From positions 1 through 64,000 of IMG/VR virus record IMGVR_UViG_3300033463_000049: 64,000 nucleotides of DNA. One strand, 5' to 3'. This document shows positions 1 through 25,370 of the stretch, in pieces; position 1 is the first letter of the stretch, and every line of letters begins with the position of its first letter. A program made the translations under genes and the position numbers. Under the pieces are notes generated by a model. It saw nothing but the letters and a program-made list of their open reading frames with translations. It had not been told where the DNA came from and searched no databases. The stretch comes from a virus (lineage: Duplodnaviria; Caudoviricetes).

Positions 1-144
1 TTGGCTTTACACCACTTCAACGCCAAGTTTAACATAAGGGGCATTCTGTCCCCCAGCATTGCTTTGTATCCGTTCATACAGTTAAAAATTAGTTGGACGA
101 CCCGGATTCGAACCGGGAATGACAGAACACGTGTTTTTGTATAG

Positions 145-215
145 TTGCCCCAACAGGATTCGAACCTGTGCAGCAAGACCCAAATTCTTGAGTACTACCG
201 TTATACTATAGGGCA
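145..215 (-). tRNA. tRNA-Gln(UUG), nested inside the split tRNA
   Basis: TGCCCTA/TGGGGCA acceptor; anticodon arm CAAGA-AT-TTG-GG-TCTTG; T arm ACAGG-TTCGAAT-CCTGT. Confidence 0.85.
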
Positions 216-2955: not shown

Positions 2956-3423
2956 TTATAATTTTAATGGCGTTCTGTAACACTCATCTTGTTCCCGGAT
3001 CAAGAATCTTGTTATTCCTACAAAAGTAAAGAAACTCTGATTTAACAGATACAATTCATGCTTTCTCCAAAATCTCGAAACTTGTGGTACAATATGTCCA
3101 GGAATTATTCGTTCCCCGTACTTCATTGTTGCGCACAATGGGTGTTGATTTAAGAATTCCTCTGTTAGTCTAAATGTGACATAACCAAAATACTCCCACG
3201 ACCAATAGCCAACATAGACATCTTTTGGCATCAGACAGTCTTCCGGAGCTAATTCCGTTGGTCTATCTTCACGTGCAAAGTTTAAGTATCCGAGCAGAGG
3301 TTTGCCGGTTTTACTTTCTACGGTACATATTATTGTAACAGGTCTTACAATACTTATATACCCAGGAACAAGAATTAATTCTATAGCTCCTTGAACATTG
3401 ATTGTGTCTCCTCGTTTCCACAT
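2956..3423 (-). CDS. hypothetical protein
   Basis: 155-aa ORF colinear with its neighbours. Confidence 0.7.
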   Translation of the reverse strand: MWKRGDTINVQGAIELILVPGYISIVRPVTIICTVESKTGKPLLGYLNFAREDRPTELAPEDCLMPKDVYVGYWSWEYFGYVTFRLTEEFLNQHPLCATMKYGERIIPGHIVPQVSRFWRKHELYLLNQSFFTFVGITRFLIREQDECYRTPLKL

Positions 3424-3456: not shown

Positions 3457-3509
3457 GAGTGAGTGCGGGAGTCGAACCCGCAGAATTAACTCGTCCAAAT
3501 TACTCACTC
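3457..3509 (-). ncRNA. tRNA-like minihelix (8-bp acceptor plus T arm, no D or anticodon arm)
   Basis: GAGTGAGT/ACTCACTC stem; GCGGG-TTCGACT-CCCGC T arm; 20-nt connector. Confidence 0.7.
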
Positions 3510-3800
3510 TTTGTTCGCGTTTAGGTAGTACGCACCGACTTCACGCAGCCTCCTTGAGGCCCGTGTAGTCTGCAATGTTAATATTGCCAGTTAAATTTAT
3601 ATCAAAGCGCTTAATGTGTTTACTTCCACTGCCGTCAAATGCATTCAGGCCCGTGTTAAAATGGGGCGCGTGACAGTCGCCCCGCCAGTGTTCGATTGAG
3701 TGTATATTTTCGGAACTGGTAGTGGACCTGGAGGGTATGCCTCCCTCGTCCGAACAGTTTACCTCACACACGCTAAGATTTCGCACTAAAGATCGTGGAA
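3510..3800 (-). ncRNA. ssrA: circularly permuted (two-piece) tmRNA; outer boundaries approximate
   Basis: Acceptor piece ends GGAC-GAGGG-AGGCATA-CCCTC-CAGGTCC-A (3723) and lies upstream of the coding piece starting GGGCCTG (3652). G3:U70 pair and A73. Tag frame 3588-3541 encodes GNINIADYTGLKEAA-stop after TAACT. Confidence 0.85.
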
Positions 3801-4117
3801 ATAACTATTCCATAATGGAGATTCCCCATCTCCGTCTACTTCATTGCATGAACAATAATCTTTGACTTCTGGGTTATCTTCTAAGGACTTTAACATTTCC
3901 TCGGCCTTTTCATCAGATACTTGGTAAAAAACTAATATATGTTTCATATCAAATAAATATTTGTGAGCAAAGGTGGACGCGACCCGCCAATGCTCTGTGA
4001 CGCTATTTTAAAGCCTCCTGGCGCATTTTACAGTCGTTGTGGTCAGCTGTTCCACTTTAACTATAAAACGCGTCAGAGAGGCTGTAAATGGCTTATGAGT
4101 GTGTACGGTGATATGAC

Positions 4118-4388
4118 TGATACAAAGATACTCGCATGTCGTACAGACGTACTTTGATAGTCTGTATGAGCTAAGCTGGTACAATGACACACATACAGTT
4201 TTGCTATTGAGCATAAAAGCATATTTTACGTCTTAGCTAGACGTTTGAATCCACCATTGATACAAAGATACTTAGGCATGTGTCGATTCACATAACACCT
4301 TTGCAATACTCTTCGTGGTCTTATTTGTCTAATTACAATGCCGTTTCCTAAATGCAAATTGGTGTATTACACGTGATACAAAGATACT
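4118..4388. repeat. three exact 15-bp direct repeats TGATACAAAGATACT
   Basis: Copies at 4118-4132, 4258-4272 and 4374-4388; the minus strand contains TATCTTTG (Bacteroidota -7 box TAnnTTTG). Confidence 0.85.
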
Positions 4389-4415
4389 TGTGTATAGATT
4401 CGTTCCTACCGTGGG

Positions 4416-5015
4416 TTACCAACGCCACGAATAAGAGAAGTAGCCAGGATACTCCGACTCGAGGTTGCTCTTGTCGATATCATACTGCTTCTCCAGAGCG
4501 GTCTTTTCCTTACGCTCTGCATCTGCCATACGCTCGCTCAGATCGTCGTACTCAGGACAGGTGATGCTGCCAGGAACCCAGACCTCTTCGCCGCCCTTCT
4601 TGAGCTCGAATGTCTTCTTCTCCTTAACAGGGTTGCCGTCCTTATAGTCGGTGATGACTTCCATCTCCAGCTTGCCGTCCTTGCCGCCCATTTTGGTGAT
4701 GTGCTCTTCGTTGAGCAAGAAGCCGGACATCTGATACTGGAGCTTTTCAGCCTCTTTCAGGTACTTCAGCGTGATGTTGTTCTCATGACGACGCTTCTGC
4801 AGCTGCAAAAGCTTAAGTCTGCGCTGGAACTCTGAGCGCAGCGAACGCGTCATGATGTTTTCCTTCAGACGGTCGTCCTTGGTTTTCTTGATGTTCTCCA
4901 TCACTGCCTTAGTGATTTCTACACTTGCAGTACCTTCTCTACGTACTACTGTGCTGATGTTGTCGATGTCGACAACGCCGTTTTGCTGCTGAGCAGCGTC
5001 TTTCTTGTTTGCCAT
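4416..5015 (-). CDS. hypothetical protein, probably highly expressed
   Basis: 199 aa, strong codon bias, CATTATCAAA-ATG start motif. Confidence 0.85.
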   Translation of the reverse strand: MANKKDAAQQQNGVVDIDNISTVVRREGTASVEITKAVMENIKKTKDDRLKENIMTRSLRSEFQRRLKLLQLQKRRHENNITLKYLKEAEKLQYQMSGFLLNEEHITKMGGKDGKLEMEVITDYKDGNPVKEKKTFELKKGGEEVWVPGSITCPEYDDLSERMADAERKEKTALEKQYDIDKSNLESEYPGYFSYSWRW

Positions 5016-5055
5016 TTTGATAATGATTTTGTTATTGTAAAAAATTAACTAAAAC

Positions 5056-5190
5056 TTACTGGTCTTCCCAGTGTGATCGCTTTCCGTTAGCTCTGCAATA
5101 CGGATCCATCTTTCGATGTGCACCTCTTTCGTGCTTTTTTACTTCTATATCGCGTCGCTTAGAGGGCCGATCTCGCCATGTCTTTCCCAT
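5056..5190 (-). CDS. small basic protein (44 aa, MGKTWRDRPSKRR...), not in ORF track
   Basis: ATG 5190 to TAA 5056 fills the gap between co-oriented genes. Confidence 0.55.
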   Translation of the reverse strand: MGKTWRDRPSKRRDIEVKKHERGAHRKMDPYCRANGKRSHWEDQ

Positions 5191-5194
5191 ATAC

Positions 5195-5689
5195 TTACCA
5201 CCTTGAAATAAATCCGTATAAAGTTTTAAACACAGCGATTTTCTGTCCAGTGAAGTTATACTTATCCATCAGGCTTGCTGAGATGTTTAAGTCTTCTTTA
5301 GACAGAATTTCTAGCGAATTGTCAAAACGCTTCTTTTCTTCCTCTTGCCCTAGTCTGAGGTAAGCGTTCAGAACTGCTCCTGTAAACTCCTTCTTGTTAA
5401 AGGGTTTTGCAAGGGCATGTGCTAGAATTGTACCGAAATAGATGATGGCCTCATCTTCGGGAGTATTTTTAACTCGGGGTTTTTTTGTCGCCTTTGTCAT
5501 TGTTTTTACTACCCCAGAGACATGATCGCTAGCAAGTAGAACTTGAGCGATTTCCTGCTGATCGAACACAACAGCGTGAACTGTTTCTGCTCCGCTTTGT
5601 TTACCAACAGCTGTTTGGAGATTTATGACGAAGGTGTCATCGGGGGCAGCTTCCCCCTCATAAATTAAAAGGATTGCGCGTGTCTGCAT
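5195..5689 (-). CDS. hypothetical protein
   Basis: 164-aa ORF in the operon. Confidence 0.8.
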   Translation of the reverse strand: MQTRAILLIYEGEAAPDDTFVINLQTAVGKQSGAETVHAVVFDQQEIAQVLLASDHVSGVVKTMTKATKKPRVKNTPEDEAIIYFGTILAHALAKPFNKKEFTGAVLNAYLRLGQEEEKKRFDNSLEILSKEDLNISASLMDKYNFTGQKIAVFKTLYGFISRW

Positions 5690-5700
5690 CTTTGCCAGTG

Positions 5701-6213
5701 TTAATCGATGATTGTAAATTTCTTGCCGTCAATAATTGTGTCAGTCCTAATTTTAGGAGACGACTCGTTCAGAAGCTTGTCAAGCTGTACGTCTGATGAA
5801 TCTTTCGGCCTTTCGGATAGTTTTGTACTGATAGAGGAGTCAATGAATTTATAGACAGTATTATAATTCTGCCTATATTCATATACAATATCCCTCTTGG
5901 TTGCACTACCCTGCCGTTTAATAACGACTTGAGCAATGTTAACTAAAGCTTCCTGTGGGATAGCCCGGAACGTTGAATCAATAGAGTTTTCATCAGCTAT
6001 TCGTTGTCGAAACTGATAAACATCATCAACCGACATAAACGTCGGATTGAGCACACTGGCAACAGCCTCTTTGAGCTGTGCGTTTTCTGTTGTGTCTTCT
6101 AATAGGTAATCAGCATACTTCTGATCCTCGTAGTAGTTATAGCCCAGCGAAGACACAATACTGAGCGCTACTACCCCGACTATTGTCAGGAGAACATAAA
6201 CAAATTTCTTCAT
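5701..6213 (-). CDS. membrane-anchored hypothetical protein
   Basis: N-terminal TM or signal helix; CATTATCAAA-ATG motif. Confidence 0.8.
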   Translation of the reverse strand: MKKFVYVLLTIVGVVALSIVSSLGYNYYEDQKYADYLLEDTTENAQLKEAVASVLNPTFMSVDDVYQFRQRIADENSIDSTFRAIPQEALVNIAQVVIKRQGSATKRDIVYEYRQNYNTVYKFIDSSISTKLSERPKDSSDVQLDKLLNESSPKIRTDTIIDGKKFTIID

Positions 6214-6244
6214 TTTGATAATGAGAATTTAATTAAACAATTGG

Positions 6245-6487
6245 TCATTTCTGACCGTCGGATTTTCTAATTCCTTCCCACTCACTGATAAATATTACTA
6301 AGAATACTATAGTGAGTATTGCAGATGCAACGAATTGACAGGTATTGTGAAGATTTGCATCTTTCTTCATGTCGTCATACGACATGCCGGTTACTGCCAA
6401 TAGTCCCAAAAGAGCAACGAAATACATTGTAGAGATGATAATTCTCTCCGCAAATGTTTTAATTTTCACACCATTTCCCATAATCAT
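6245..6487 (-). CDS. small two-TM membrane protein
   Basis: Two hydrophobic helices. Confidence 0.65.
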   Translation of the reverse strand: MIMGNGVKIKTFAERIIISTMYFVALLGLLAVTGMSYDDMKKDANLHNTCQFVASAILTIVFLVIFISEWEGIRKSDGQK

Positions 6488-6731
6488 TTTCGTTAAGGAA
6501 ATACGATTCGTTGTCCTCTAAGCAAGAGTCACGACGTTCATGCAAATCATAATCAGAGAATGATACTACACATATGTCAGCATCATCTGCCTCTTTCCAT
6601 GTTTTGTATTGAACATTGTTTTCTTCACACCACTTTTTCATGTGGCGTACATTCATGTGGTGACCGCGAACTGCCATTTCACGTTCTCCATAGGTGCGTC
6701 TACACCTTCTCAGTTTCTTTTTCGCTTCCAT
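6459..6731 (-). CDS. hypothetical protein
   Basis: 90-aa ORF. Confidence 0.6.
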   Translation of the reverse strand: MEAKKKLRRCRRTYGEREMAVRGHHMNVRHMKKWCEENNVQYKTWKEADDADICVVSFSDYDLHERRDSCLEDNESYFLNENDYGKWCEN

Positions 6732-6842
6732 TGTTGTTTACGATTTGATTGAACTGACAAAAAACGCATACGGCTGCGTTGCATTCTGTACAATCGTTGT
6801 TGTTCATAATAATTGTTTAATTGTTTCTGCAATATTGCATTG

Positions 6843-6915
6843 TGTGTCGTGTTGGACTCAAACCAACGACCTCCGGCTTATCGAGCCGGTGCTCTATCAA
6901 CTGAGCTAACGACAC
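6843..6915 (-). tRNA. tRNA-Ile(GAU) with C33
   Basis: GTGTCGT/ACGACAC acceptor; CCGGC-TC-GAT-AA-GCCGG; T loop TTTGAGT. Confidence 0.8.
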
Positions 6916-7050
6916 TGTCGCCTATAGACGTCTGGCGACAACTGTGGATATTTCTGTATCTCCTAGCAGCGGGTCTTCTATTTATAAGCTGCTTCTTGCG
7001 CGACCCCGATTTCGTAACATCCATACCACAGCATCCGTTTTAATGGTTTG

Positions 7051-7122
7051 TAGTCGATAGCAGAATCGAACTGCTCTTTAGAGAATGAAAATCTCTCGTC
7101 CTAACCGATAGACGAATCGACC
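7051..7122 (-). tRNA. tRNA-Glu(UUC)
   Basis: GGTCGAT/ATCGACT; AGAGA-TT-TTC-AT-TCTCT; AGCAG-TTCGATT-CTGCT. Confidence 0.9.
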
Positions 7123-7127
7123 GAATT

Positions 7128-7222
7128 AAAAATCAGTACCACTCTCACGAGCAATACTGATTCACATCATACCATGAGCAAAACTTTGAAATCTAACATT
7201 ACTCTCACGAGCTATGATAGAA
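7128..7222 (-). terminator. two tandem GUGA-tetraloop hairpins, the downstream one with a U tract
   Basis: ACTCTCACGAGC core repeated at 7141 and 7201; AATCAGTATTGCTC-GTGA-GAGTGGTACTGATT-TTT. Confidence 0.55.
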
Positions 7223-7344
7223 CAAAAGTAAGCCAATCATTTTTACCAATAACTAAAGGTTTAATTGTGCCAGGATTTTCATAAATCCGAATGAGACAAT
7301 TCAAAAAGATTAACAAGGTATATGCGTTTAAAAAATAACGTTAG

Positions 7345-7416
7345 TTAGGGAGGGCGGATTCAAACCACCGTCTACAGAAACCATATCTGTCGCTCTAAAC
7401 GCTGAGCTACTCCCCA
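7345..7416 (-). tRNA. tRNA-Pro(UGG)-like with atypical anticodon loop
   Basis: TGGGGAG/CTCCCTA; ACAGA-TA-TGG-TT-TCTGT (A33, U37); D loop lacks GG. Confidence 0.65.
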
Positions 7417-7896
7417 GGTGTACGTGTATTTACCCACGCACAGGTGTCAGCTTCTTTTTAAGTCTCCTCTGACCACGACTTTGTACCGACTAGCCCCAAC
7501 ATCTAGAATGGTCACGGTACTGTGGGGTCTAATAGCATTACCCCTTTGTACACACTTACGATCTATATTATCGTAAGCCTTGACGGATTGTCGATCCGGC
7601 ATGATTGTAGGTCGAGTGACGCGTCTTTCAGGTTTCCTTGTTTAATTCTGACTAACCTGATAAAAATCCAGACGCCTACAATCTGCATGCGCACCCTCTC
7701 ATCATTCGTACTGAGATCCCTAGGAATTTCCATGGAGTCTGATTCACTCAATACTTGCGGGCTTGAGGTTTCCGCTTTAGCTGATTTCTATGCATACTGC
7801 GGCAGGGGAGCTAATAACTTAAAACAAACTTATGGCTTCAAACTCATTCATTTGCTCCCCCACCGCGCGTGAGAATATATGAAAGTAATTAAAGTA

Positions 7897-8112
7897 TTAC
7901 ATTTTTGCTAGTCGTGCTAGTTTCTTATATTCTCGTTTTGCCTCTTCACGAGGCATTGTGGTCATAATCATACGTCCATCTACATCTTTATAGATTGCCC
8001 ACTTAAACGCATGATGTGCCAGCAAAGATACTTTATTACCAAAAGCATCTTCAAATTGTGCAATGATCCTATGCTGGCAACGATTAGGATCATATTTCTT
8101 TTTTCGTGTCAT
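7897..8112 (-). CDS. hypothetical protein
   Basis: 71 aa; ATGA overlap with the upstream gene. Confidence 0.7.
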   Translation of the reverse strand: MTRKKKYDPNRCQHRIIAQFEDAFGNKVSLLAHHAFKWAIYKDVDGRMIMTTMPREEAKREYKKLARLAKM

Positions 8113-8555
8113 CTTATTATCTGTGTTACAACGTGATCAACATAGATTATTATCTCTGTTTCTCTACCATTTCTCTGGTGAGTTATTCCCCACGGTTTAA
8201 CAATGACTTTGTTATCACTGTCTGAGAAGAAGGTTATTAACTCTGGCTTGTCTTTGTAGACTTTTAACCAGTTTGTTGTTGCAGGATGTCGTACAACTAC
8301 CTGTGAATGCATGGCAATTGTTTTTACGACATTCGGAGACACATTCAATGCTGCTCTTGTTGGAATGTATACGTTATTTTTGAACAAACAACGTAATTCT
8401 CCAGTTTTTAAGAGCATATTGCTTATATTTACCACTTCGGCTGCAACCAATTCTCGTTCTACACTACGAACGATGAGCCAGGGTCCGATGGGTAAACCTA
8501 ATGCTGGTAATTTTCGCTTAACCAGCATTCCTTTTCGCACTCTTTTTTCTGTCAT
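8109..8555 (-). CDS. hypothetical protein
   Basis: 148-aa ORF. Confidence 0.7.
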   Translation of the reverse strand: MTEKRVRKGMLVKRKLPALGLPIGPWLIVRSVERELVAAEVVNISNMLLKTGELRCLFKNNVYIPTRAALNVSPNVVKTIAMHSQVVVRHPATTNWLKVYKDKPELITFFSDSDNKVIVKPWGITHQRNGRETEIIIYVDHVVTQIIR

Positions 8556-8600
8556 TCTTGATAAATTAACAGATTAATTACTAAAGATGAACTTAACCCA

Positions 8601-8837
8601 TCATCTTTTTGGGTTTATTCGCTGGAGATAGTGGGTTGTTGGCAGTTTTCGACGATAACATACGTTGGAACATACGTGCTGTCTAGGAATCGGACCAAAC
8701 GTGTGTGAAATATCACATACAATACACGGAGGTATGAAACTATATTTGTCGCGACGCCGCTTTTTTACCCGAAATATTATCCCACGGATTGTCACTAACT
8801 GTCCTGGTTTCCACATACTTTTTCGTAATATCCCCAC
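8601..8837 (-). CDS. small Cys-motif protein (KPGQLVTI paralog)
   Basis: KPGQLVTI..I(F/Y)R followed by CxxC motifs; true start probably at MWKPG. Confidence 0.65.
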   Translation of the reverse strand: MGILRKSMWKPGQLVTIRGIIFRVKKRRRDKYSFIPPCIVCDISHTFGPIPRQHVCSNVCYRRKLPTTHYLQRINPKR

Positions 8838-8992
8838 AGTCCTAATTTTTCAACACAACCTATGCATTGTAGCATTGGAAGTGCACACAGTCTACATGAT
8901 GATAATAGAGTACTTTTTCGTCTTCTGATACGATAAACAGTGCGATTTATCGTAACCAGTTGTCCTGGTTTGAATCTACTCATCTCGTACAA
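8795..8992 (-). CDS. small Cys-motif protein (KPGQLVTI paralog)
   Basis: FKPGQLVTINRTVYR...CRLC...CIGC; ends TAG-TGA. Confidence 0.65.
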   Translation of the reverse strand: MYEMSRFKPGQLVTINRTVYRIRRRKSTLLSSCRLCALPMLQCIGCVEKLGLWGYYEKVCGNQDS

Positions 8993-9210
8993 ATCAAATT
9001 ACCCTCAAGATGTGTTCCTAACTTCTCACATATATCCGTCAGAGATTCAGAGATTACTTTGGCAGCGTTCTCTGTTACACCTTTACAAACCAACATCGTA
9101 GAATTACCGGCTTTAAACCATAATCTACGTCTATCGTTTCCCAGCTTATCCACTCTCTTCTTTTTGGGAAGAGGTGGATTTAGCTGGTTTTGTTTTTTAT
9201 ATGCCTCCAT
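8980..9210 (-). CDS. hypothetical protein
   Basis: 76-aa ORF overlapping both neighbours. Confidence 0.6.
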   Translation of the reverse strand: MEAYKKQNQLNPPLPKKKRVDKLGNDRRRLWFKAGNSTMLVCKGVTENAAKVISESLTDICEKLGTHLEGNLICTR

Positions 9211-9940
9211 TCAGATTAATATTTAATTCACGAATGTTTATGACGATCTGAGGAATGCCCTCTTCAGACTCTTCAGGATTATCATCTATTGGAGTTTCAC
9301 CGGCAGGATCGATCTTAACAGTACGTTTCTTTGTTTCACCAAAATCTATTAGATGTTTGTCATCATTCTCGTGCTGGTTCAGCCATTCCTGAACAAAATT
9401 GTGAGAGTGATCAAGATGTTCTTCTGCTGATTTTTTCAGTGCATGAATAATGTAAGCATCTTGAAGTTTTTCGTCCTCTTTTGCCTTTGCTACAAGCATT
9501 TTCCTAATTTTTTCAGCAGCTGATGACTCTTCTTCAGATTCTTCAGGATCATCTGTTTCGGACTCTTGATCAGTTGGACCAAAGTTGATGAGATGTACAT
9601 CTTCTTCAGGACAATCTCTGTGCTGTTTTTTCCACTGCTGTACAAAGTTGTGAGAATATTTTTCTTGTGATTTTTGAAGTGCGTGAACAAACGGTTCACC
9701 GTATTTGTTGTAAGCATCTCGAAGTTCTTCGTTTGCTTCTAGAGTTTCTGACAGTGAGTTGTGCACATCAATGAATGTGTTGAGCAAGAGCTTCATAAAC
9801 TCTGCAACTTCATCACCAGTTATCACTTCGCCGTTATATACAGCGAGTACAGCTGGTACTGCCATCCAAGGTGTAGTACCTCCGGATGTAACGGCAATTT
9901 TTAGTTCTTTTGCCATTTTTAGAGCTTTTTGTATATCCAT
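9197..9940 (-). CDS. acidic hypothetical protein with an internal duplication
   Basis: HAL.KS...SHNFVQ.W..QH...HLI.FG...PEESEE occurs twice. Confidence 0.8.
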   Translation of the reverse strand: MDIQKALKMAKELKIAVTSGGTTPWMAVPAVLAVYNGEVITGDEVAEFMKLLLNTFIDVHNSLSETLEANEELRDAYNKYGEPFVHALQKSQEKYSHNFVQQWKKQHRDCPEEDVHLINFGPTDQESETDDPEESEEESSAAEKIRKMLVAKAKEDEKLQDAYIIHALKKSAEEHLDHSHNFVQEWLNQHENDDKHLIDFGETKKRTVKIDPAGETPIDDNPEESEEGIPQIVINIRELNINLNGGI

Positions 9941-10075
9941 ACGTTTTTGTTTAGTATTGATTACTATTCCAACACTTAACTCAGTCGGATTTGAGTGATG
10001 CTAATATTAAGGCTCCGAGAATAAATCCGAGTCCAAATGACAGGAGCATCTTTGCTGTGAATAGATCGATGTACA

Positions 10076-10315
10076 TTATTTCCAGATATTAAGTTTTACG
10101 CGTTTGGTTTTCTTTGCTCTGTAGCTGGCTATATACATTTTCATAAAAAAATAGCTTTCTTTTCTTAGCTCTTCTATGATTGAATCTTTTTTAAGCCAGC
10201 CATGTTTATGTATGCGTGAGCAAGAGTAGTATGTTACACCAGCCACTTTTAACGCGTAAACAGCATATCTCTCACGGAATTTTCTTCGTAACTCTTTTAA
10301 CAGCTTTACTTTCAT
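10076..10315 (-). CDS. hypothetical basic protein
   Basis: 79 aa, MKVKLLKELRRKF-type small phage protein. Confidence 0.65.
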   Translation of the reverse strand: MKVKLLKELRRKFRERYAVYALKVAGVTYYSCSRIHKHGWLKKDSIIEELRKESYFFMKMYIASYRAKKTKRVKLNIWK

Positions 10316-10344
10316 TTTTCAGATACTTTAGTTTTCATCGATAG

Positions 10345-10692
10345 TCATAAGCCAATTGTATCTACTTTGCAAATAGTATCCCTTTTCACCTGTTGTACAG
10401 GTAAGTCGGGAAACGCCAAACGCATACGACGATACGTGCTATCTTTGATAATAACTGGAGGTATAGGACCTATCAGTTCTTCAAGAATGCACCATTCGTC
10501 TGTTTCAGATAGTACATCGAGCACAAAATCTGCATCATGCTCTTCCACCACGTACAAGATGTCGATAATTGCTTTCTCCAATCTTGCACATTTCTCACAA
10601 TATGCATCGGACTTAGTCTGTGCAGAAACGAAATTACACTCAACTAAGCCGATGCATACCAACGCGATTATGAACAACGTAAGCTTTTTCAT
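10345..10692 (-). CDS. secreted or membrane hypothetical protein
   Basis: N-terminal signal-like segment. Confidence 0.7.
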   Translation of the reverse strand: MKKLTLFIIALVCIGLVECNFVSAQTKSDAYCEKCARLEKAIIDILYVVEEHDADFVLDVLSETDEWCILEELIGPIPPVIIKDSTYRRMRLAFPDLPVQQVKRDTICKVDTIGL

Positions 10693-10890
10693 CTTTCAAC
10701 CGGGAAATTTCTCTTTGTTGTAACATTTCCACGGCGACTTGTCTCGCACACATATTGTTGTGCACGAAAGTCGTATCTCACACTTATTTTTGCATCCATG
10801 ATTTGATACGATCTATAAGCCATTGTGTTATTGCTACGACGACAACGAAAGCTATCGCTGCCTCAAAGAGGATTATTGCCAACTGTGCAT

Positions 10891-11232
10891 TCATTTCTTC
10901 AATGCATTTAGTTGTTCTGTGATTTTCGGCAGGTATCGACGATACATTTTACCTGTCTTTTTCGATCGGAGCCAGCAATACGCTTTCCCCTTACTTGAGA
11001 GAAACACAGGGTACTTGAAACCCTGAAGATCTTGATAGTAGAAATTTGTTTTCACACTATCACCAGTTGTAGTTTGTTGGATAAATGTATTACCCTTCAA
11101 AACTACATTTTGTCCTCTCAAGCCATGCGCAATGGCTAAGAATCCAAGGATGAGGACAATGATACCTAGGATTCTCGATGATCGTTTTATCATATGTTTA
11201 AATGGTGAATTCAAACAAAGTTGTGTAAACAT
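10891..11232 (-). CDS. membrane-anchored hypothetical protein
   Basis: TM helix, then YQDLQGFKYPVFLSSKGKAY...SKKTGKMYRRYLP. Confidence 0.75.
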   Translation of the reverse strand: MFTQLCLNSPFKHMIKRSSRILGIIVLILGFLAIAHGLRGQNVVLKGNTFIQQTTTGDSVKTNFYYQDLQGFKYPVFLSSKGKAYCWLRSKKTGKMYRRYLPKITEQLNALKK

Positions 11233-11234
11233 AT

Positions 11235-11271
11235 AAAAAGGGAGCGGACTTATGCCTAAGCAGCCGCTCCC
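11235..11271 (-). terminator. intrinsic terminator
   Basis: GGGAGCGG/CCGCTCCC stem followed by TTTTT on the minus strand. Confidence 0.6.
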
Positions 11272-11280
11272 CTACATGTT

Positions 11281-12093
11281 AACACATCGTTGCGCTTTCT
11301 ATCCTCCCAGTGGGTTGATGTACTCGATGTGGGATTCAGCCAATGCCTTCCATTGACCTCTCCTATAAATCCACACCTAGTAACTTACTAGTTTAGGTTG
11401 GTGTGCCACAATGGTTACGCAACATACTCATTGTAGTATAATTATTCCTTTGATGAAATAACTATAGATTGTAACCTCTAAGGGATTTGCGTGTGAGTCG
11501 AGTAACAGAGACACTCACTCCCCGTTGTATTGATAGGATACAACTGACCGATTCTACCTAGGTAGATTACCACTCGGCTAATGGGTTCAACTATTCCAGT
11601 GGACACATCACTGTTCAAGTCTAGCGTGTGTTTGTCGGGGACACGCATCCTCCCTTAGATAGTAGTCTATCGGCCAGGCAGCAGGCATCAGATAGTACAC
11701 ACAAATGGTCTTGTGTTGACCTGACTATCTTTAGCCTGAACTTCGGGACGTATCCCGAACATCTGCCAATTTGTTTGTAAACTCTTTCCCCTGCAAGCGG
11801 TCAAACCTACAGGGTACTGTTACCATGTAAAATTTGAATTGATTGCGAAATCCCAACTCACTCGAATAATCGATATAGGCGCCAGTTGCCGTGACACGTG
11901 GGATCTACTGGACTTATGAGGAAGTTTACATATTGTGCTCGCTGTCTAATGCCACCTGATATTATCAGGAATGGGAACAACTGCGGTTTAGCACTTACTC
12001 TCTTGCCTCACGGCAGCACGAGCACTTTGATATATGATATTCACGTTGCTCTGCAATATGCAGGTTGTACGTGGAGAGCGCAAATTTTGTGTT
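11281..12093. ncRNA. candidate large (about 810 nt) structured non-coding RNA
   Basis: No credible ORF; end-closing helix 11290-11300/12073-12083; many nested helices. Confidence 0.55.
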
Positions 12094-12203
12094 TATTTTA
12101 ACTTTATACAATAGGCTATATATTAAGAGAAAATAAGCCTATGAATAAGAGAAAATACAACAATTCCGAAAGTGAGGTGGCTCTCCTGCGAGAGCCTGCC
12201 CAC

Positions 12204-12860
12204 TTATAGACCTAAATCGTCAGCGGTTTTTGTGTCCGCTTTCGTTTCGGTCGGTACGTTCAAATCTCCGTCATCAATACGACGCAACAAGTTGTTGCGT
12301 AACATATTTGTCGCGCTTTCAGTATCGGTAAAAACTCCGTAAAAGATTTTACTTTGTTCCGAAATTCGTACAACCGCGCCGTCAGCGTTTTCGTACTCCA
12401 AATACTCTGTACCCTCGTACTTTGTACCCTTCAGGAGTGCGGACACGCTTTCAGTCAAAACGGAAAAAACTGAAGTGTTTCCCAAACCCTCGAAGTACTC
12501 ACGAAGTTTTCCTTCAAGTTTCGTTTGTTGCTCGTCAGTCAGACCGCCTTTGGGAGTCTTGAACGTTTTCCCGTCTCCCAAATCCAAATCCAAATCGTCA
12601 GCCGTAAAAACACCTGAATAACGAATTTGAGTGCGGTTTTTTAGTATCGTCTGTTTCATTTTCTCGCGTACTTTTTCGTCAGTAACACGCGAAAGAATTT
12701 CGTTTTCTTTGTCTGAGAGTGTATCTCCGTCAGAGAACGAAATAACGATACGATAACCCGTTTGGGGTTCGTAGCCCGCGCGTTCCTCACGATTACGCGC
12801 TTTTAGCGTGTCGGGAATTTCGACCAACACGATTTTTGCCAAATCAAATTTTGTCTGCAT
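12204..12860 (-). CDS. acidic hypothetical protein with distinct nucleotide composition
   Basis: 218-aa ORF, CpG-rich, followed by a hairpin at 12171-12204. Confidence 0.85.
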   Translation of the reverse strand: MQTKFDLAKIVLVEIPDTLKARNREERAGYEPQTGYRIVISFSDGDTLSDKENEILSRVTDEKVREKMKQTILKNRTQIRYSGVFTADDLDLDLGDGKTFKTPKGGLTDEQQTKLEGKLREYFEGLGNTSVFSVLTESVSALLKGTKYEGTEYLEYENADGAVVRISEQSKIFYGVFTDTESATNMLRNNLLRRIDDGDLNVPTETKADTKTADDLGL

Positions 12861-13010
12861 GATGTAAAACGTATTAAGTATATGTAATGTATAGGGGGAA
12901 CCTTTCCCCCATACGCATGTACTGGGGTGTGAAGTCTGCTATTTCTCCTTTCCACACTCACACAAAAAAATAAAAAATTTTTAAAAAATTTTCACCGTGT
13001 AGTAGTGTAC

Positions 13011-13046
13011 AAAAAAATCCGAAGAACATCGCTGTTCCCCGGATTC
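13011..13046 (-). terminator. intrinsic terminator ending the 15525-13052 operon
   Basis: AATCCGGGGAACA-GCGA-TGTTCTTCGGATT-TTTTT. Confidence 0.7.
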
Positions 13047-13051
13047 TATGT

Positions 13052-13240
13052 TTAATCTTCTTCCCACCATTGCAGGAATGCACACTTTGCATTAGGATTA
13101 TTCTCTGCTTGTTGGAATTTAACGGACCTAATGTATTTAACTATTCCGTCACTCCACGTGCCAACTTGTATATCACCGTATTTCTTCTGAATGACTTTAA
13201 GTTGTTCTATTATTTCACTTATTTTTAAAGGTTCTTCCAT
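13052..13240 (-). CDS. hypothetical protein
   Basis: 62 aa, LKISEIIEQL..IQKKYGD. Confidence 0.7.
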   Translation of the reverse strand: MEEPLKISEIIEQLKVIQKKYGDIQVGTWSDGIVKYIRSVKFQQAENNPNAKCAFLQWWEED

Positions 13241-13243
13241 GTA

Positions 13244-13462
13244 TTATGCATTATTACTCTCTAGTTCTATTAGCATTTCAAGATAATGTTTGGCCTTTTT
13301 TAGGTCTTCTATACCGTTCTTATCTTTATATCTACATATATACTTTATTATATTACCTACTATAAAGCTTAAGTTATTTTTGTGTATAAATTCCACAGGT
13401 TGGATGGCAAAACCTTTGTAGTGTGAGCCACCCACCTGCTGTTCTAGAGCATTATTCGTCAT
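13244..13462 (-). CDS. DUF3310 (SaV-like) protein
   Basis: QVGGSHYK..IQPVEFI...GNIIKYICRYKDKNGIEDLKKAKHYL. Confidence 0.85.
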   Translation of the reverse strand: MTNNALEQQVGGSHYKGFAIQPVEFIHKNNLSFIVGNIIKYICRYKDKNGIEDLKKAKHYLEMLIELESNNA

Positions 13463-13478
13463 TTTTTACCTCCCATTG

Positions 13479-13694
13479 TCACACTTGCAATAGTTTCATG
13501 TACCTTTCTTTATCCTCTTTCAAAGGATCTAGAATCCAACCCCAATCGTCTACTTTGGTAATATCTCCTCCAGCCCTATTAAATCTCTGTAGAATGTCTT
13601 GTTTAACGTCTTCAGAGTACTTGTCATTGTCAGCGCTTATGAGGCTTACAAAGACTAGATTTCTGAGCATTTTCTTGCTATCCTTATTACTCAT
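13479..13694 (-). CDS. hypothetical protein
   Basis: Probable start MSNKDSKK at 13694, after the extended upstream gene. Confidence 0.6.
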   Translation of the reverse strand: MSNKDSKKMLRNLVFVSLISADNDKYSEDVKQDILQRFNRAGGDITKVDDWGWILDPLKEDKERYMKLLQV

Positions 13695-13716
13695 TTGTGT
13701 TAGGCATTTCTTCAAA

Positions 13717-13980
13717 TTAATTCCACCAATGTTTCTTACGTAGCTATTTTTGTAGATCCTAATACATACATCTCCATTTATCTGCTTCTGCATTGGCTCT
13801 TATATAGTCATCACGTAGAGTTTCAATCTGTTTTTTATACATATTTTCATAAAAACGGTCTTTTTCAATAGTTATACGCCTAATAATGTCTACTTCTTTT
13901 TCTCTAGCTTTTTCGGCTCTCACAATCAGATCTCTATACTCTATAGTGGATATAACCACAATGTTTTCTTTCATTTCCAT
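13717..13980 (-). CDS. coiled-coil hypothetical protein (2 TAG=Gln)
   Basis: Readthrough gives ...WRCMYQDLQKQLRKKHWWN-TAA. Confidence 0.65.
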
Positions 13981-14525
13981 TATACTGCTACTTCTTCAAA
14001 TTCTACGTATTCGTCCATTTCTGTACTCATTCCTTCTCGTTCGACCAGAAGATCACTTTGGGTTGTTGGTACTTCCTCATGTAAGTAGCCGCTCCCCCGT
14101 TCGCTAGCTGTATCATCTCCAAACTCTCCGTTTGTATTACTTTCTGTATCTCCGGGTATGGTTCCTGATACCTCGTCGCTAGTACATTCTTCTGTTGTTC
14201 CGTCATTTTCGTCTTCAAGGTCTTTTTTAAGTTCGTTTATTGCAGTTTCTACTTGCTCAGTTATGTTTCTTTCTTTCTGAGCCGTTTGCATAGCTTCAGC
14301 AAATTCTTTTGGCGTCATTTTAGCGTATTGCCATACATATTTGGTCAAATTACGCATATAAGTGGCGTAAATCTTGGCTTTTTCAGAGTATTCGCCTACT
14401 TCTTCGATCTTTTTTCTATATTCTTCAATCTTTTCCTGGGCTTCTTTTATACTCCATTTGTGGGTATCGTAAATTGCCCGTATAAGAGCTCCGTCAATAT
14501 CGTAAATGTTGCTGTTGTTTTTCAT
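13980..14525 (-). CDS. hypothetical protein with acidic tail
   Basis: 181-aa ORF. Confidence 0.75.
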   Translation of the reverse strand: MKNNSNIYDIDGALIRAIYDTHKWSIKEAQEKIEEYRKKIEEVGEYSEKAKIYATYMRNLTKYVWQYAKMTPKEFAEAMQTAQKERNITEQVETAINELKKDLEDENDGTTEECTSDEVSGTIPGDTESNTNGEFGDDTASERGSGYLHEEVPTTQSDLLVEREGMSTEMDEYVEFEEVAV

Positions 14526-14597
14526 AATTTTAAATTATTACATCCCAATCTAGTGGTTCTATCTCATCATTCAGTTTCCTCGCCATAACAGTGGTTT

Positions 14598-15122
14598 TTA
14601 AGTCTGTAAGTAGTATCTCGAACTATGAGGTCGTAAGCCTCCATCCATACCGGATTGTTCAAACAATCTTTCAGCGTGGTATGCGTACTTTGAACATTCT
14701 GTTTCTATTTCGTCTCCGTCTTCATTGATTGTTATATGGGAATAAGTTTGTGAATTTTTCCAGTTATAGTATGAATTGAGGGCCTGCTTTCGTTCTTTTT
14801 TACTACTGTACTGATGTATACATTTTAGCATACGTTCTGCATCTACGCTTCCACATGCTCGAATCATACAAATATCGTCTACGAAACTCTCAACTCCCTC
14901 CTCTCCAAACTTATTCTTTATCTGCTCATACTCCATTTGAGCTTTTTGGAGGTACGGATTATCTTCATCGTAAACAGGCTCTTCGTTTAGGATATACAGA
15001 CTGTTTATTGGTACTCCGTGAATGAAGAAATATTTACAATTATCTGTTACAGGCTAACTAATAGCTTTCAAACTCAGGAAATCTGCATAATATAGTATGG
15101 CATTGCGTTCTATATCATTCAT
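14598..15122 (-). CDS. hypothetical protein (1 TAG=Gln)
   Basis: ATG 15122 (MNDIERNAILYYADF) is in frame with 14936 through TAG at 15056-15054. Confidence 0.8.
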
Positions 15123-15123
15123 A

Positions 15124-15525
15124 TTATTTCTTTTGGAAAGTTTTATAGATACATTTGGTCACCCAACCAAGTAGGTAACAGAATGGTTCTGAACTACTAT
15201 TGTATACTTGCTGGTCCATATGGCCGTATATGTCAAGTGCTACATGACCGGCCTCGTGAGAAATAGTGTCGATCCAGTGAAATTTATCTATATATTTTGG
15301 TTTGTAGTCGTGCAAACGTACTAACGCCACAGATTTATTGTCAGATTTTCTATAACAAGTAGAGACTGTAGCAAAATCTCCAGGATTATCATCTTCTATC
15401 TCAGCACCATCTGAGTATATGTATAATTTCCTAAGTTCTTCTGTAGTTACATGCTTATTTGCTACTACTAAGTCTACGTTATATATAGCCTCATAAGTAT
15501 CTATTATACTCTTCTTTTTCTTCAT
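15124..15525 (-). CDS. zincin-like (HExxH) protein
   Basis: TISHEAGH followed by SEPFCYLLGW. Confidence 0.75.
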   Translation of the reverse strand: MKKKKSIIDTYEAIYNVDLVVANKHVTTEELRKLYIYSDGAEIEDDNPGDFATVSTCYRKSDNKSVALVRLHDYKPKYIDKFHWIDTISHEAGHVALDIYGHMDQQVYNSSSEPFCYLLGWVTKCIYKTFQKK

Positions 15526-15594
15526 GTTATACTAATTCTTATAGTCTATATAACCCCCTATAGTCCCCCTTATTGAGGGTGGGTTTACGCCGAT

Positions 15595-15677
15595 ATAACG
15601 TAAAAATGGGCAAAAAAGTTGCATTTTTACAAATTTTAAATTTCTTTTGCAACCAAATAGTAACTACATTGCGTTAT
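15595..15677. promoter_or_regulatory. divergent promoter pair TGCAAC-N17/18-CGTTAT
   Basis: Minus: 15623-15618 and 15600-15595 (N17). Plus: 15648-15653 and 15672-15677 (N18). Located exactly at the strand switch. Confidence 0.7.
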
Positions 15678-15703
15678 CGCCGTGTAATTTGAAAAATATT
15701 GAT

Positions 15704-16120
15704 ATGGCAAAGACATTAAGAGTAATTGATCCGTTTTTCATTATGGAATTGGGAGATACGTTTGAGTTCTCCGATGAAACAAATATGTACGTTTCAAAAC
15801 ATAAGGAAGAGTTTTATAAGGCAGATAGCGAACGTGTAGAAGATATAAAGTCTTCATATAGTTCAGAATTTCAGATTTCTGTCGAATATGCTCAGACCTT
15901 GGTTAAGGATGGTTACTTGGAAGAGGTTGAAGACGACAATAAGAAGTCATTTGTAAATATCTTTGATGAGATAGACAATCTTCTGGAAAAGTACAAGGAT
16001 GGTTTGGCCACCCTCAATAAGGATACAATGAACCTTCCTGCTTGCGTAAAAGTTGAGCGCGAAGTCGTTTTGACCAACTTGGTAACACTACTTGAACACT
16101 TAAAAAGCTTAAAGAAGTAA
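15704..16120 (+). CDS. hypothetical protein
   Basis: Probable start MAKTLRV downstream of the promoter motif. Confidence 0.8.
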   Translation: MAKTLRVIDPFFIMELGDTFEFSDETNMYVSKHKEEFYKADSERVEDIKSSYSSEFQISVEYAQTLVKDGYLEEVEDDNKKSFVNIFDEIDNLLEKYKDGLATLNKDTMNLPACVKVEREVVLTNLVTLLEHLKSLKK

Positions 16121-16518
16121 TGGAAGAGGATAAGATTATAGATCAGTCGGAGCTGGCAAAGAGCGTTGGTAATAGTATTAAATACACTTTTTACGACCAC
16201 TTTCTTGTAAAGCCCCTGGACCCGATCAAAGTAAAGAAAGAATTTACAGTACCTGTCGATACTACTGTTCATGAAGATAAGAATGGTGTTAAAGCAGAAG
16301 ACTTTAAAGAGACGTCGACAGAGGTTAAAGAAGTTGATTCCGATTATCGCAAAGGAATTGTAATCAAATGTCCTGCTTATTATGACGATCCTAGTGTAAA
16401 GCAGGGTGCGCAGGTCGGTGATGTTGTGATCTTCAGAGATGCTGCGGGATTGAGATTTGACCTTGTAAAAGACAGTAGACTTCTTAGACAATACGATATA
16501 CTTGGTTTTGAGAAGTGA
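16120..16518 (+). CDS. groES: GroES-like co-chaperonin
   Basis: DHFLVKP...KGIVI...QVGDVVIF...LLRQYDILG, with an extended mobile loop. Confidence 0.7.
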   Translation: MEEDKIIDQSELAKSVGNSIKYTFYDHFLVKPLDPIKVKKEFTVPVDTTVHEDKNGVKAEDFKETSTEVKEVDSDYRKGIVIKCPAYYDDPSVKQGAQVGDVVIFRDAAGLRFDLVKDSRLLRQYDILGFEK

Positions 16519-16730
16519 TTGACATAGAACAAGTGATAAAAGAAGTTTCAGTTAAGACTGGAGAAGACAGAGACGAAGTTGCTAGAGTATGCAAACACGT
16601 ATTCGAACAATTAGTTAAAATAATGAAAGATGACGAAGATACTAGAGATATTCTACTTAATCACTTTCTAAAATTTAAACTGAAACGCAGATATAAAGAA
16701 AACAAATCTAAACCCTATACAGCAAAATGA
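16515..16730 (+). CDS. HU/IHF-like DNA-binding protein
   Basis: IKEVSVKTGEDRDEVARVCKHVFEQLVKIMK...ILLNHFLKFKL. Confidence 0.6.
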   Translation: MIDIEQVIKEVSVKTGEDRDEVARVCKHVFEQLVKIMKDDEDTRDILLNHFLKFKLKRRYKENKSKPYTAK

Positions 16731-17086
16731 AGACATTTTATCTTACTTACGGTTCTAATAATATTATAATCGATCCTGAGACAAATAGAGCAGATCGATT
16801 GGAAACCAGTAGAACCGGAATAAACAACATCTACTTGGTAAAAGAACCAATGCACGTTGTGTACGGATACAAGGACGAACAGAAGGAATTTGATGTAGAT
16901 GTTGATGATATTATTGTTACATTCTACAGTGAAGACTTTACGACACACGCAATAGTTGTAAAGAATGAAGAGTGGGCAAACAATATTAAGACATACGACA
17001 AAGCTCGACAAGAAGAAAAAGAACGTTGGGCAGAAGCAGAAAAAGGTACTATTCCAACATGTAATGCGTGTGAATCAATTGGTTAA
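16727..17086 (+). CDS. hypothetical protein
   Basis: 119 aa; ATGA overlap. Confidence 0.75.
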   Translation: MKTFYLTYGSNNIIIDPETNRADRLETSRTGINNIYLVKEPMHVVYGYKDEQKEFDVDVDDIIVTFYSEDFTTHAIVVKNEEWANNIKTYDKARQEEKERWAEAEKGTIPTCNACESIG

Positions 17087-17106
17087 GGTTAAAATATAAA
17101 CATACT

Positions 17107-17373
17107 ATGAAAAAGACAGTTAAGAACACAAAGCCCAGTTATACAGTAGATTTGACCAAAGTAAAGACTCTTGAAGATATCGATGTTGCTTTTGGTCTGG
17201 CCAAGCAAAAGGCTGGTCTCGCCATTAGTGACGAAGAGCTTAGCGCAATCGTTTTTGATGCTATTAAGGCATTTGGTCCGCGAATTACAATCGTAGATTG
17301 TACTTGTCCGAAAGCTGCAAAGAAGCCAAACATCTTTAAGCGCTTCTGGAACTGGATGCTCGGCAGAAAGTAA
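17107..17373 (+). CDS. hypothetical protein
   Basis: 88 aa with amphipathic C-terminus KKPNIFKRFWNW. Confidence 0.75.
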   Translation: MKKTVKNTKPSYTVDLTKVKTLEDIDVAFGLAKQKAGLAISDEELSAIVFDAIKAFGPRITIVDCTCPKAAKKPNIFKRFWNWMLGRK

Positions 17374-17381
17374 TAACAGTT

Positions 17382-17480
17382 CCCACCATGCTTCCCGAAG
17401 CATCGCACGCAATAGCGGGGTGTTGATCAGCAGGTGGGCCGTATACAGGTTTTACGTGGGTACCTGTTAAAAACCACGTG
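17382..17480 (+). ncRNA. multi-hairpin RNA followed by an H-type pseudoknot
   Basis: CCCACC/GGTGGG closes internal hairpins; ACAGGT/ACCTGT is interlaced with ACGTGG/CCACGT. Confidence 0.55.
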
Positions 17481-17515
17481 CATCAAAACTTTTCTTAATT
17501 TTATTATGATATTAA

Positions 17516-17569
17516 GACCTATATGAAGGCACCCTTAAGAAAGGCTGGGATCGTTCCCCAGTATAGGTC
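17516..17569 (+). ncRNA. tRNA-like minihelix (8-bp acceptor plus T-like arm)
   Basis: GACCTATA/TATAGGTC; CTGGG-ATCGTTC-CCCAG; 21-nt connector. Confidence 0.6.
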
Positions 17570-17570
17570 C

Positions 17571-17648
17571 TGCCCCGTAGTGTAAATACCTTAAACACAG
17601 AGGATTCTAGCCCCTCATTTGGTCGCAGGTGACGGCCCGGGGTGACCA
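17571..17648 (+). tRNA. amber suppressor tRNA(CUA), probably Gln, with non-canonical D and T loops
   Basis: TGCCCCG-TA-GTGT-AAATACCTTAA-ACAC-A-GAGGA-TT-CTA-GC-CCCTC-ATTT-GGTCG-CAGGTGA-CGGCC-CGGGGTG-A-CCA; anticodon 17607-17609. Confidence 0.85.
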
Positions 17649-17670: not shown

Positions 17671-17774
17671 ATCGGCGTAGTTCAAGAAAGGTAGGATAGA
17701 TTGCATGATACTCCCCTTGAGGACGATTGATAAGTATACAGTCAAAGCAGGTGCAACACCTGTCGCCGATACCA
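17671..17774 (+). tRNA. tRNA-like RNA with a 35-nt expanded anticodon loop
   Basis: ATCGGCG/CGCCGAT-A-CCA; D arm GTTC/GGAT; GATTG/CAGTC stem; T arm GCAGG-TGCAACA-CCTGT. Confidence 0.7.
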
Positions 17775-17777
17775 AAT

Positions 17778-17849
17778 CGCGGAGTGGAGAAGAGGTAACT
17801 CGTCAGGCTCATAATCTGAAGATCGCTGGTTCGATTCCAGCCTCCGCAA
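17778..17849 (+). tRNA. initiator tRNA-fMet(CAU)
   Basis: C1:A72 mismatch; TCAGG-CT-CAT-AA-TCTGA; GCTGG-TTCGATT-CCAGC. Confidence 0.9.
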
Positions 17850-17874
17850 CTCATCATGATAATATAAATTTATA

Positions 17875-24275: not shown

Positions 24276-24314
24276 TAATCTATAACAGAACCTCGACTGT
24301 CTAAAATGAGGGTT

Positions 24315-24396
24315 GACCTTATAGCTCAATTGGTAGAGCACCCGCCGGTATACAGTCCGATACGGCATGTTCTCGGTTCGAGTCCGAGTTGGGTCA
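24315..24396 (+). tRNA. tRNA-like gene with aberrant anticodon arm
   Basis: Canonical D arm GCTC-AATTGGTA-GAGC and T arm CTCGG-TTCGAGT-CCGAG; middle arm GCCG-G-TAT-ACAGTCCG-ATA-CGGC. Confidence 0.65.
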
Positions 24397-24467
24397 CAAT
24401 TTAGATTAACAGTTTCCGCGCTGCAATGCGGAGTTTAATTAATGTTAATTTAATTTATTTTTATTTT

Positions 24468-25370
24468 ATGGAAAGTTCAAAAATTATGATGTTCCCTGAG
24501 ATGGGTGCAAACAACAACATTGATCCAAACCTGCTGTTGGCCCTTAACAACAATGGTGGTTTTGGTGGTAATAACTGGATTTGGATTTTGTTCTTGTGGC
24601 TCATTTGGGGCGCCAACGGCTGGGGTAACAACGGCTGGGGCGGTAATGGTGGTAATGGATTCCTGTCTAATCAGCTCAGCAATGATAGTGGTCGTGAATT
24701 GCTGATGAATGCTATACAGGGTAACGGTACTGCAATTAGTAATCTTGCTAATCTGCTGAACACCGAAGTACAGACTGTACAGAATGGAATCTTTACTCTC
24801 AACAACGCCATTAATTCTGTTGGTACTCAAGTTGGTATGGGCAGCTTACAGATTCAGAATGCCATTCAGGCAGGCAATGCTTCTATTGCTTCTCAGATCT
24901 GTCAGTGCTGCTGCGAGAATCGTTTGGCTATTGCTAATCAGACTAACACACTGCAGGCTCAGGCTGCTGCTAATCAAGCTGCCGATCAGCTCGCTGTATG
25001 TCAGTAGACTAATGCATTAACAACTCAGGCTGAACGTAACACTCGCGACATAACTGAAGCCATCAATGCTCAGAGTGTAATGATCAACGATAAGTTCTGT
25101 GATCTTGAGAAACGTGAATTGTAGGATAAGATTAATACTCTTACTGCCGACAATGCCCTGCTTCGTTCTAACATCAACAACGACAGACAGACTACGTTTA
25201 TCAACGATAAGTTCAACGAAATCGAAAATCAGCTCGTTGCTATTAAATCAGCTCAACCTAATACTGTTCCTGTTCAGTGGCCTCAACTGACCGCTGTAAA
25301 CACTACTCCATATATGAGCAGTTTTTATGGATATGGAAACGGTTTCTGGGGTAACAATGTTTCATTTTAA
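24468..25370 (+). CDS. Gly/Asn-rich membrane protein with CQCCC motif and coiled coil (300 aa, 2 TAG)
   Basis: WIWILFLWLIW TM segment, GWGNNGWGGNG, ICQCCCENRLA. Confidence 0.85.

Follow-up and report, generated by a model that had tools for sequence, protein, structure and literature searches.

The window analyzed here, a stretch of 64,000 nucleotides (nt) comprising positions 1 to 64,000 of the IMG/VR virus record IMGVR_UViG_3300033463_000049, carries two short elements, A and B, each of which joins an acceptor-like stem to a T arm in the manner of a transfer RNA (tRNA) minihelix. Element A lies directly downstream of a permuted two-piece transfer-messenger RNA (tmRNA) and element B directly upstream of an amber suppressor tRNA. 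The DNA is that of a TAG-recoded gut crAss-like phage, since its nearest phage records are cr272_1, cr273_1 and cr131_1 (Crassvirales, family Suoliviridae) and the total length of long open reading frames (ORFs) almost doubles when TAG is read as sense, with nearly all of the gain falling in the plus-strand late genes at 18.5-58 kb. Given this recoding, a suppressor tRNA with the anticodon CUA is an expected component of the genome. The features of the two loci, in the direction of their reading, are the following.

3541..3774, minus strand: permuted two-piece tmRNA (Rfam RF04321, tmRNA_permuted, 42.9 bits, E 1e-5)
3510..3540, minus strand: tail that closes the tmRNA coding piece at its 3' end, made up of a hairpin (conserved loop CUACCUAAA) and then AACAAA; it abuts element A
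3457..3509, minus strand: minihelix A, GAGUGAGU / 20-nt connector / GCGGG-UUCGACU-CCCGC / ACUCACUC
2956..3423, minus strand: ORF of 155 amino acids, the first downstream of element A, its start codon 33 nt past A
17490..17515, plus strand: AT-rich stretch directly 5' of element B; its counterpart in relatives is a conserved AT-rich motif, ..AUAAAGUUAAAAUGUU..
17516..17569, plus strand: minihelix B, GACCUAUA / 21-nt connector / CUGGG-AUCGUUC-CCCAG / UAUAGGUC, then C
17571..17648, plus strand: noncanonical amber suppressor tRNA with the anticodon CUA and an encoded ACCA, recognized by eye and with a descriptor

Both elements have exactly the build that the initial annotation of this DNA had given them, an 8-base-pair (bp) acceptor-like stem, a 5-bp T stem and a 7-nt loop, and a tRNA-type 7-bp acceptor stem stacked on a 5-bp T stem with a 7-nt loop is present in each. 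Their positions were also given correctly: A starts 31 nt past the stop codon of the tmRNA tag, and a single nucleotide separates B from U17571, with which the CUA suppressor begins. The connectors are indeed 20-21 nt in length, too short for both a D arm and an anticodon arm, but the small hairpin once assigned to them amounts to four weak pairs and is not conserved in relatives. A strict descriptor, consisting of eight Watson-Crick acceptor pairs, five Watson-Crick T-stem pairs and a 7-nt loop, matches A and B only in the 64-kb window, the mean number of matches in Markov shuffles being 0.17. A looser 7-bp descriptor gives 15 matches in the window, four of them real tRNAs, against 6.5 expected, a result barely above chance; as the loose descriptor discriminates so little, the case for the elements rests on their position and conservation. 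Folding of A gives a z-score of -2.6, and that of B one of -1.8. Element A contains the T-arm motif GGTTCRANYCC at 3468-3478, while the T loop of B (AUCGUUC) is noncanonical and lacks this motif. Neither element is called as a tRNA by ARAGORN with default settings or by Rfam (E up to 10, searched in short stretches), ARAGORN with lowered thresholds produces only overlapping noise, and a test for intrinsic terminators finds no U run after A or B.

The tmRNA next to element A scores slightly below the gathering score of RF04321, which is 47. The acceptor piece, upstream of the coding piece, ends CAGGUCC-A-CUA and the coding piece starts GGGCCUG, with G3:U70 retained; the tag is GNINIADYTGLKEAA, followed by its stop codon. 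In relatives, the acceptor pairs covary (GGGCGUG/CACGUCC and GGGCCAU/AUGGUCC), and these compensatory changes support the assignment of the acceptor piece. Past the tail of the coding piece comes A and, directly after it, C74-U75 (C3456-U3455). No terminator-like site is found on the minus strand between 2900 and 4100, hence none between element A and the 155-amino-acid ORF; the scans for sigma-70 promoters and terminators were uninformative.

The T arm of A matches RF00023 (tmRNA) at positions 347-363 with 16.6 bits, and two tmRNA-related identities were considered for the element. That A might be the 3' half of the tRNA-like domain of the tmRNA was rejected, since the acceptor piece proper is found upstream and ACUCACUC shows no complementarity to GGGCCUG. 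For the idea that it is the leftover 3' half of an ancestral one-piece tmRNA, we found neither support nor grounds for exclusion: GGACGAG is shared by the window and L009 alone, the T arm is equally like the general tRNA consensus, and the contents of the same place in relatives L005, L001 and L010 (see below) suggest an origin from tRNA. Some further features of the tmRNA may be recorded here. The T loop of its acceptor piece is noncanonical (GGAGG-CAUAC-CCUCC or similar), and ARAGORN with default settings misses the permuted tmRNA of the window (3774-3541, minus), yet finds a tmRNA* in most relatives. The intervening segment of the window's tmRNA contains a hairpin, GGGGCG...CGCCCC, with AUUUU at about 3682-3655 on the minus strand. 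In the cr131_1-like group, a different, repeated hairpin with the conserved loop GGUUCGUGAGAAUAG and then a U run (L002 at 1483-1506 and 1740-1765; L003, L006, L012 and L013) stands within the intervening segment of the tmRNA and downstream of the minihelix.

Evidence for element A comes from what occupies its place, the A slot, in relatives. Fifteen distinct tmRNA loci were collected with a conserved tmRNA word in IMG/VR and with the Rfam model on five more complete relatives, and they divide as follows.

11 of 15 (the window, L009, L011, L096, L097, L098, L100, L002, L003, L006 and L012): minihelix
2 of 15 (L001 and L010): degenerate tRNA-sized element with a remnant D arm
1 of 15 (L005): real tRNA-Met
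1 of 15 (L099): terminator-like hairpin, CCCCUUCGGGGG then UUU

In 14 of the 15, the tmRNA tail is followed at a distance of about 0-7 nt by a minihelix, a degenerate tRNA or a tRNA-Met. Across the related elements, the connectors range from 12 to 37 nt and are unrelated in sequence, and only the acceptor and the T arm are conserved; the A-slot elements have the canonical T loop UUCGANU and an acceptor-plus-T stack of mostly 10-13 bp. Structural conservation is found in the clade of A itself, whose six members were aligned correctly by MAFFT: all 78 stem cells (78/78) are paired even though 6 of the 13 pairs have changed on both sides, none of 500 shuffles does as well (0/500), and sliding the partner strand reduces the paired fraction to 31-59%. 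The 5' strands of more divergent elements could not be aligned and were tabulated by script; in this table, 112 of 120 cells from 10 A-slot elements are paired against a shuffle mean of 72, with the proviso that the offset of the 5' strand was picked for maximal pairing, which inflates the counts. An alternative, distal 5' partner for the 3' strand, UGAGUGU, was noticed in L003, L006 and L012; it is missing in L002, and we took it to be a by-product of a repeated tmRNA motif.

Relatives for the B slot were gathered through the first ORF of the late block. Minihelices of the B type, with the T loop A[U/G]CGUU[C/A], are present in L028, L023, L019, L016 and L017, and the stems of the six elements, including that of the window, differ and yet 70 of 72 cells of the same script table pair (69 with L023 aligned by homology), where shuffles average 50. 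Of these elements, the ones in the window, L028, L023 and L019 lie right against the suppressor. A different minihelix, with the T arm AGGGG-UUCGAUU-CCCCU, takes the abutting position in L015-L017, with a B-type copy farther upstream in L016 and L017, and in L031 yet another tRNA-like leader adjoins the suppressor. A homologue of the window's suppressor tRNA itself exists in L028; an exact search of IMG/VR with its anticodon arm gave no match.

Several other structures surround the suppressor. The AT-rich stretch 5' of element B may be a promoter. It is preceded by a conserved hairpin, ACGUGG...CCACGUG, sometimes with a nested stem, both in the window (17440-17515, plus) and in L015-L028, and the hairpin and the AT-rich motif could together form a terminator-promoter pair for the suppressor and the late block. 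An 11-mer from the connector of B, CCUUAAGAAAG (17537-17547, plus), recurs in the loop region of a plain hairpin (AACCUCCUUAAGAAAGAGGUU) in L024, L025 and L026; that hairpin sits just 5' of the suppressor in this more distant group, and the rough chance for two stretches as short as these is ~1e-3. Downstream of the suppressor, at 17671-17776 (plus), lies a tRNA-shaped RNA of ~100 nt with the acceptor AUCGGCG/CGCCGAU, two internal arms, a T-like arm (CAGGU-GCAACAC-ACCUG) and an encoded ACCA; it ends shortly before tRNA-Met (17778-17850; the gap was noted as 3 nt), has a fold z-score of -2.1, and is called neither by ARAGORN nor by Rfam.

A further property that the elements share with genuine tRNAs is found just past their 3' strands. 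In all six phage tRNAs (6/6) and in the acceptor piece of the tmRNA, a seven-base 3' strand is followed by N73, C74 and then A or U, and the trailer of both A and B reads C73-C74-U. In the script table, C74 is present in 16 of 16 elements and A or U comes next in 14 of 16; the base composition of the window is 19% C. The shared trailer suggests that the elements enter the same 3'-end pathway as the phage tRNAs. The phage genome has no match to the CCA-adding enzyme family PF01743 or to the RNase Z-type Lactamase_B_2 (PF12706), and has no SmpB; with the two families missing, it is host enzymes that would act.

We read A and B as tRNA-like punctuation, that is, as minihelices within a longer transcript that host tRNA-maturation enzymes would handle as if they were tRNAs, and we put the probability of this reading at roughly 0.55. 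It builds on the structure, the positional conservation, the stem covariation and the common 3' trailer, and from these we infer the transcription, all of the cleavages and the enzymes responsible. At the tmRNA locus, an RNase P cut at the 5' edge of A would create the 3' end of the tmRNA coding piece, and RNase Z cleavage or trimming at N73-C74 would free the downstream mRNA, whose start codon follows 33 nt on. A review of tmRNA goes no further than to call processing of the permuted precursor by RNase P and tRNase Z probable (PMC3985003). At the other locus, B and the suppressor tRNA would form a dimeric precursor, in which a single RNase P cut could both make the 5' end of the suppressor and release B, ending in C73-C74. 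The series seen at the A slot, from a real tRNA through a decayed tRNA to a minihelix, fits selection for the part of the tRNA that the enzymes recognize.

The initial annotation had come close to this in proposing processing adaptors that mature neighboring noncanonical RNAs. Processing is the best-supported reading, with 14 of the 15 A slots and the stem covariation behind it, but the neighbor need not be noncanonical: because ARAGORN with default settings calls the suppressor or the tmRNA in relatives that carry the elements, the latter are not tied to an odd neighbor. Similar elements also occur between protein genes, and for this reason their role looks like general punctuation rather than an aid to odd RNAs. 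On the minus strand of the full genome, at 85857-85810 and 86474-86415, a T arm, GUGAG-UUCGAGU-CUCAC, with acceptor pairing lies between minus-strand ORFs, and further acceptor/T-arm candidates are found at 85.4, 88.3 and 92.1 kb; a model derived from A matches these replication-arm elements in the T arm only, with E 0.03-0.11. The motif GGTTCRANYCC, which serves for finding and defining the t-elements of plants (PMC1920247), has six copies in the window against 0.28 expected. Three belong to called tRNAs; the others, one each, are in a split tRNA-Gln, in element A and in an element resembling a tRNA at 24.3 kb.

This last element (24311-24395, plus) has canonical D and T arms, GCUC-AAUUGGUA-GAGC and CUCGG-UUCGAGU-CCGAG, together with an odd anticodon arm and imperfect acceptor geometry, and is positioned 31 nt before an ATG at 24426, within an apparent TAG-read-through frame (24279-25370). 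The tRNA-Gln locus is touched by another peculiarity of the record: of its 102,216 bases, the final 127 (102090-102216) repeat window positions 54-180, and the repeat, an assembly overlap or a terminal repeat, passes through that locus.

Certain observations weigh against tRNA-like punctuation. At the B slot, eight relatives (L014, L024, L026, L029, L035, L038, L040 and L047) have only a plain hairpin 3-5 nt upstream of the suppressor, these being the more distant ones, and the A slot of L099 holds a terminator-like hairpin; since such hairpins stand in the place of the minihelices, any stable structure may suffice. The T loop of the B-type elements (AUCGUUC or AGCGUUA) is not the canonical one, and the pairing counts of the script table are raised by the choice of offset. 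The covariance models derived from A, R1 and R2, were too sequence-specific, and B scored only 7.9 bits with E 6.8; with so low a score, A and B have a common architecture but no demonstrable shared ancestry. The hairpin replacements are what one would expect if the elements were structural caps only, with A guarding the coding piece of the tmRNA, at its free 3' end, against 3' exonucleases, with B or the hairpin replacing it insulating or stabilizing the 5' leader of the suppressor, and recognition by RNase P and RNase Z not being the selected function. We nevertheless regard this as unlikely. Stability by itself would call for no more than a simple GC hairpin, but what the A slot preserves is a canonical T loop, the acceptor-plus-T stack and the tRNA-type trailer N73-C74, and the slot of L005 is occupied by a complete tRNA.

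The same A-slot series, with tRNA-Met in L005, degenerate elements retaining a remnant D arm in L001 and L010, and minihelices elsewhere, could also be read as tRNA genes that have no role themselves and are decaying next to the tmRNA and the suppressor. Neutral loss, however, would not hold 78 of 78 cells paired over six double-sided changes while the connector diverges freely, nor would it keep the element about 0-7 nt from the tmRNA tail in 14 of the 15 loci, and we find mere decay improbable. More elaborate is the idea that the minihelices, once released and tailed with CCA, act in trans, either as His-accepting forms or as sponges for host factors or toxins that bind acceptor ends. The acceptor of tRNA-His and the minihelix derived from it have an extra G-1:C73 pair atop a 7-bp stem, and this signature, which the initial annotation had assigned to the elements, is present in A and B of the window. 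It is invariant in the six-member clade of A and occurs in the B-type elements of L028 and L023; moreover, only C73-C74 of the CCA end is encoded in A and B, so that completion would need just two added bases. Outside these close relatives the likeness breaks down: the B-type elements of L016, L017 and L019 lack G-1:C73, as do the elements in the A slots of L001, L002, L003, L006 and L010, and in the other A-slot clades position 73 is an unpaired A. The pair is thus not conserved across the clades of either slot, the CCA is not encoded in full, and G-1:C73 cannot be counted as a defining feature. RNAs with no anticodon, furthermore, cannot distract anticodon nucleases, which makes decoys for anticodon-targeting defenses, one form of the earlier suggestion, implausible; no test made here spoke in their favor, and the lack of conservation in the connectors argues against any specific trans-acting sequence. 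An action in trans therefore seems to us a distant prospect. The bolder version of it, in which stable, CCA-completed minihelices of ~56 nt, in the window's clade perhaps G-1:C73 forms charged by histidyl-tRNA synthetase (HisRS) or else mimics of the acceptor end that sequester host enzymes or toxins acting on tRNA 3' ends, would serve the phage as a counter-measure and not as mere cut marks, we judge from the sequence to be similarly improbable.

The elements are of interest for annotation and for the biology of large phages alike. All of them are missed by tRNA finders. The span of the tmRNA* reported by ARAGORN ends at a fixed 91 nt past the tag, and the tmRNA features in NC_055904 and NC_055902 silently include the element as a result; the RefSeq tmRNA features of cr273_1 and cr131_1 contain it only through this 91-nt extension. 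To the question of how a two-piece tmRNA acquires the 3' end of its coding piece, a conserved tRNA-shaped element at exactly that end offers a concrete, testable answer for one phage lineage. If true, large phages would have their transcripts cut by host enzymes through tRNA punctuation of the kind found in organelles. No previous account of such elements in phages turned up in our literature searches.

Parallels are nevertheless available in several known systems. The dimeric tRNA precursors of phage T4 have units 1-3 nt apart, and one RNase P cut serves both; B and the suppressor tRNA have the same layout, with the difference that B has neither a D arm nor an anticodon arm and cannot decode. 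For A, a counterpart in function may be the mascRNA of the MALAT1 and MEN-beta transcripts, where, as reportedly described by Wilusz, Freier and Spector in 2008, a noncoding RNA gets its 3' end through RNase P cleavage at a tRNA-like structure located downstream. We propose the same role for A with respect to the tmRNA coding piece, although the mascRNA system is eukaryotic and nuclear and employs a cloverleaf mimic, whereas A of the phage is a minihelix with an ORF 33 nt downstream. The likeness extends further to the t-elements of plant mitochondria and to mitochondrial tRNA punctuation, in which non-decoding tRNA-like folds likewise end other RNAs and act as cis-signals for RNase P and RNase Z (Forner et al. 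2007, PMC1920247). The motif GGTTCRANYCC is common to the t-elements and element A, while B is without the canonical T-loop motif; in plants, too, plain stem-loops can substitute for t-elements (PMC1920247), as is apparently the case at the B slot of the phages. The differences are that a phage is not an organelle, that its elements consist of the acceptor and the T arm only, joined by a connector of 12-37 nt, and that they are known here from sequence.

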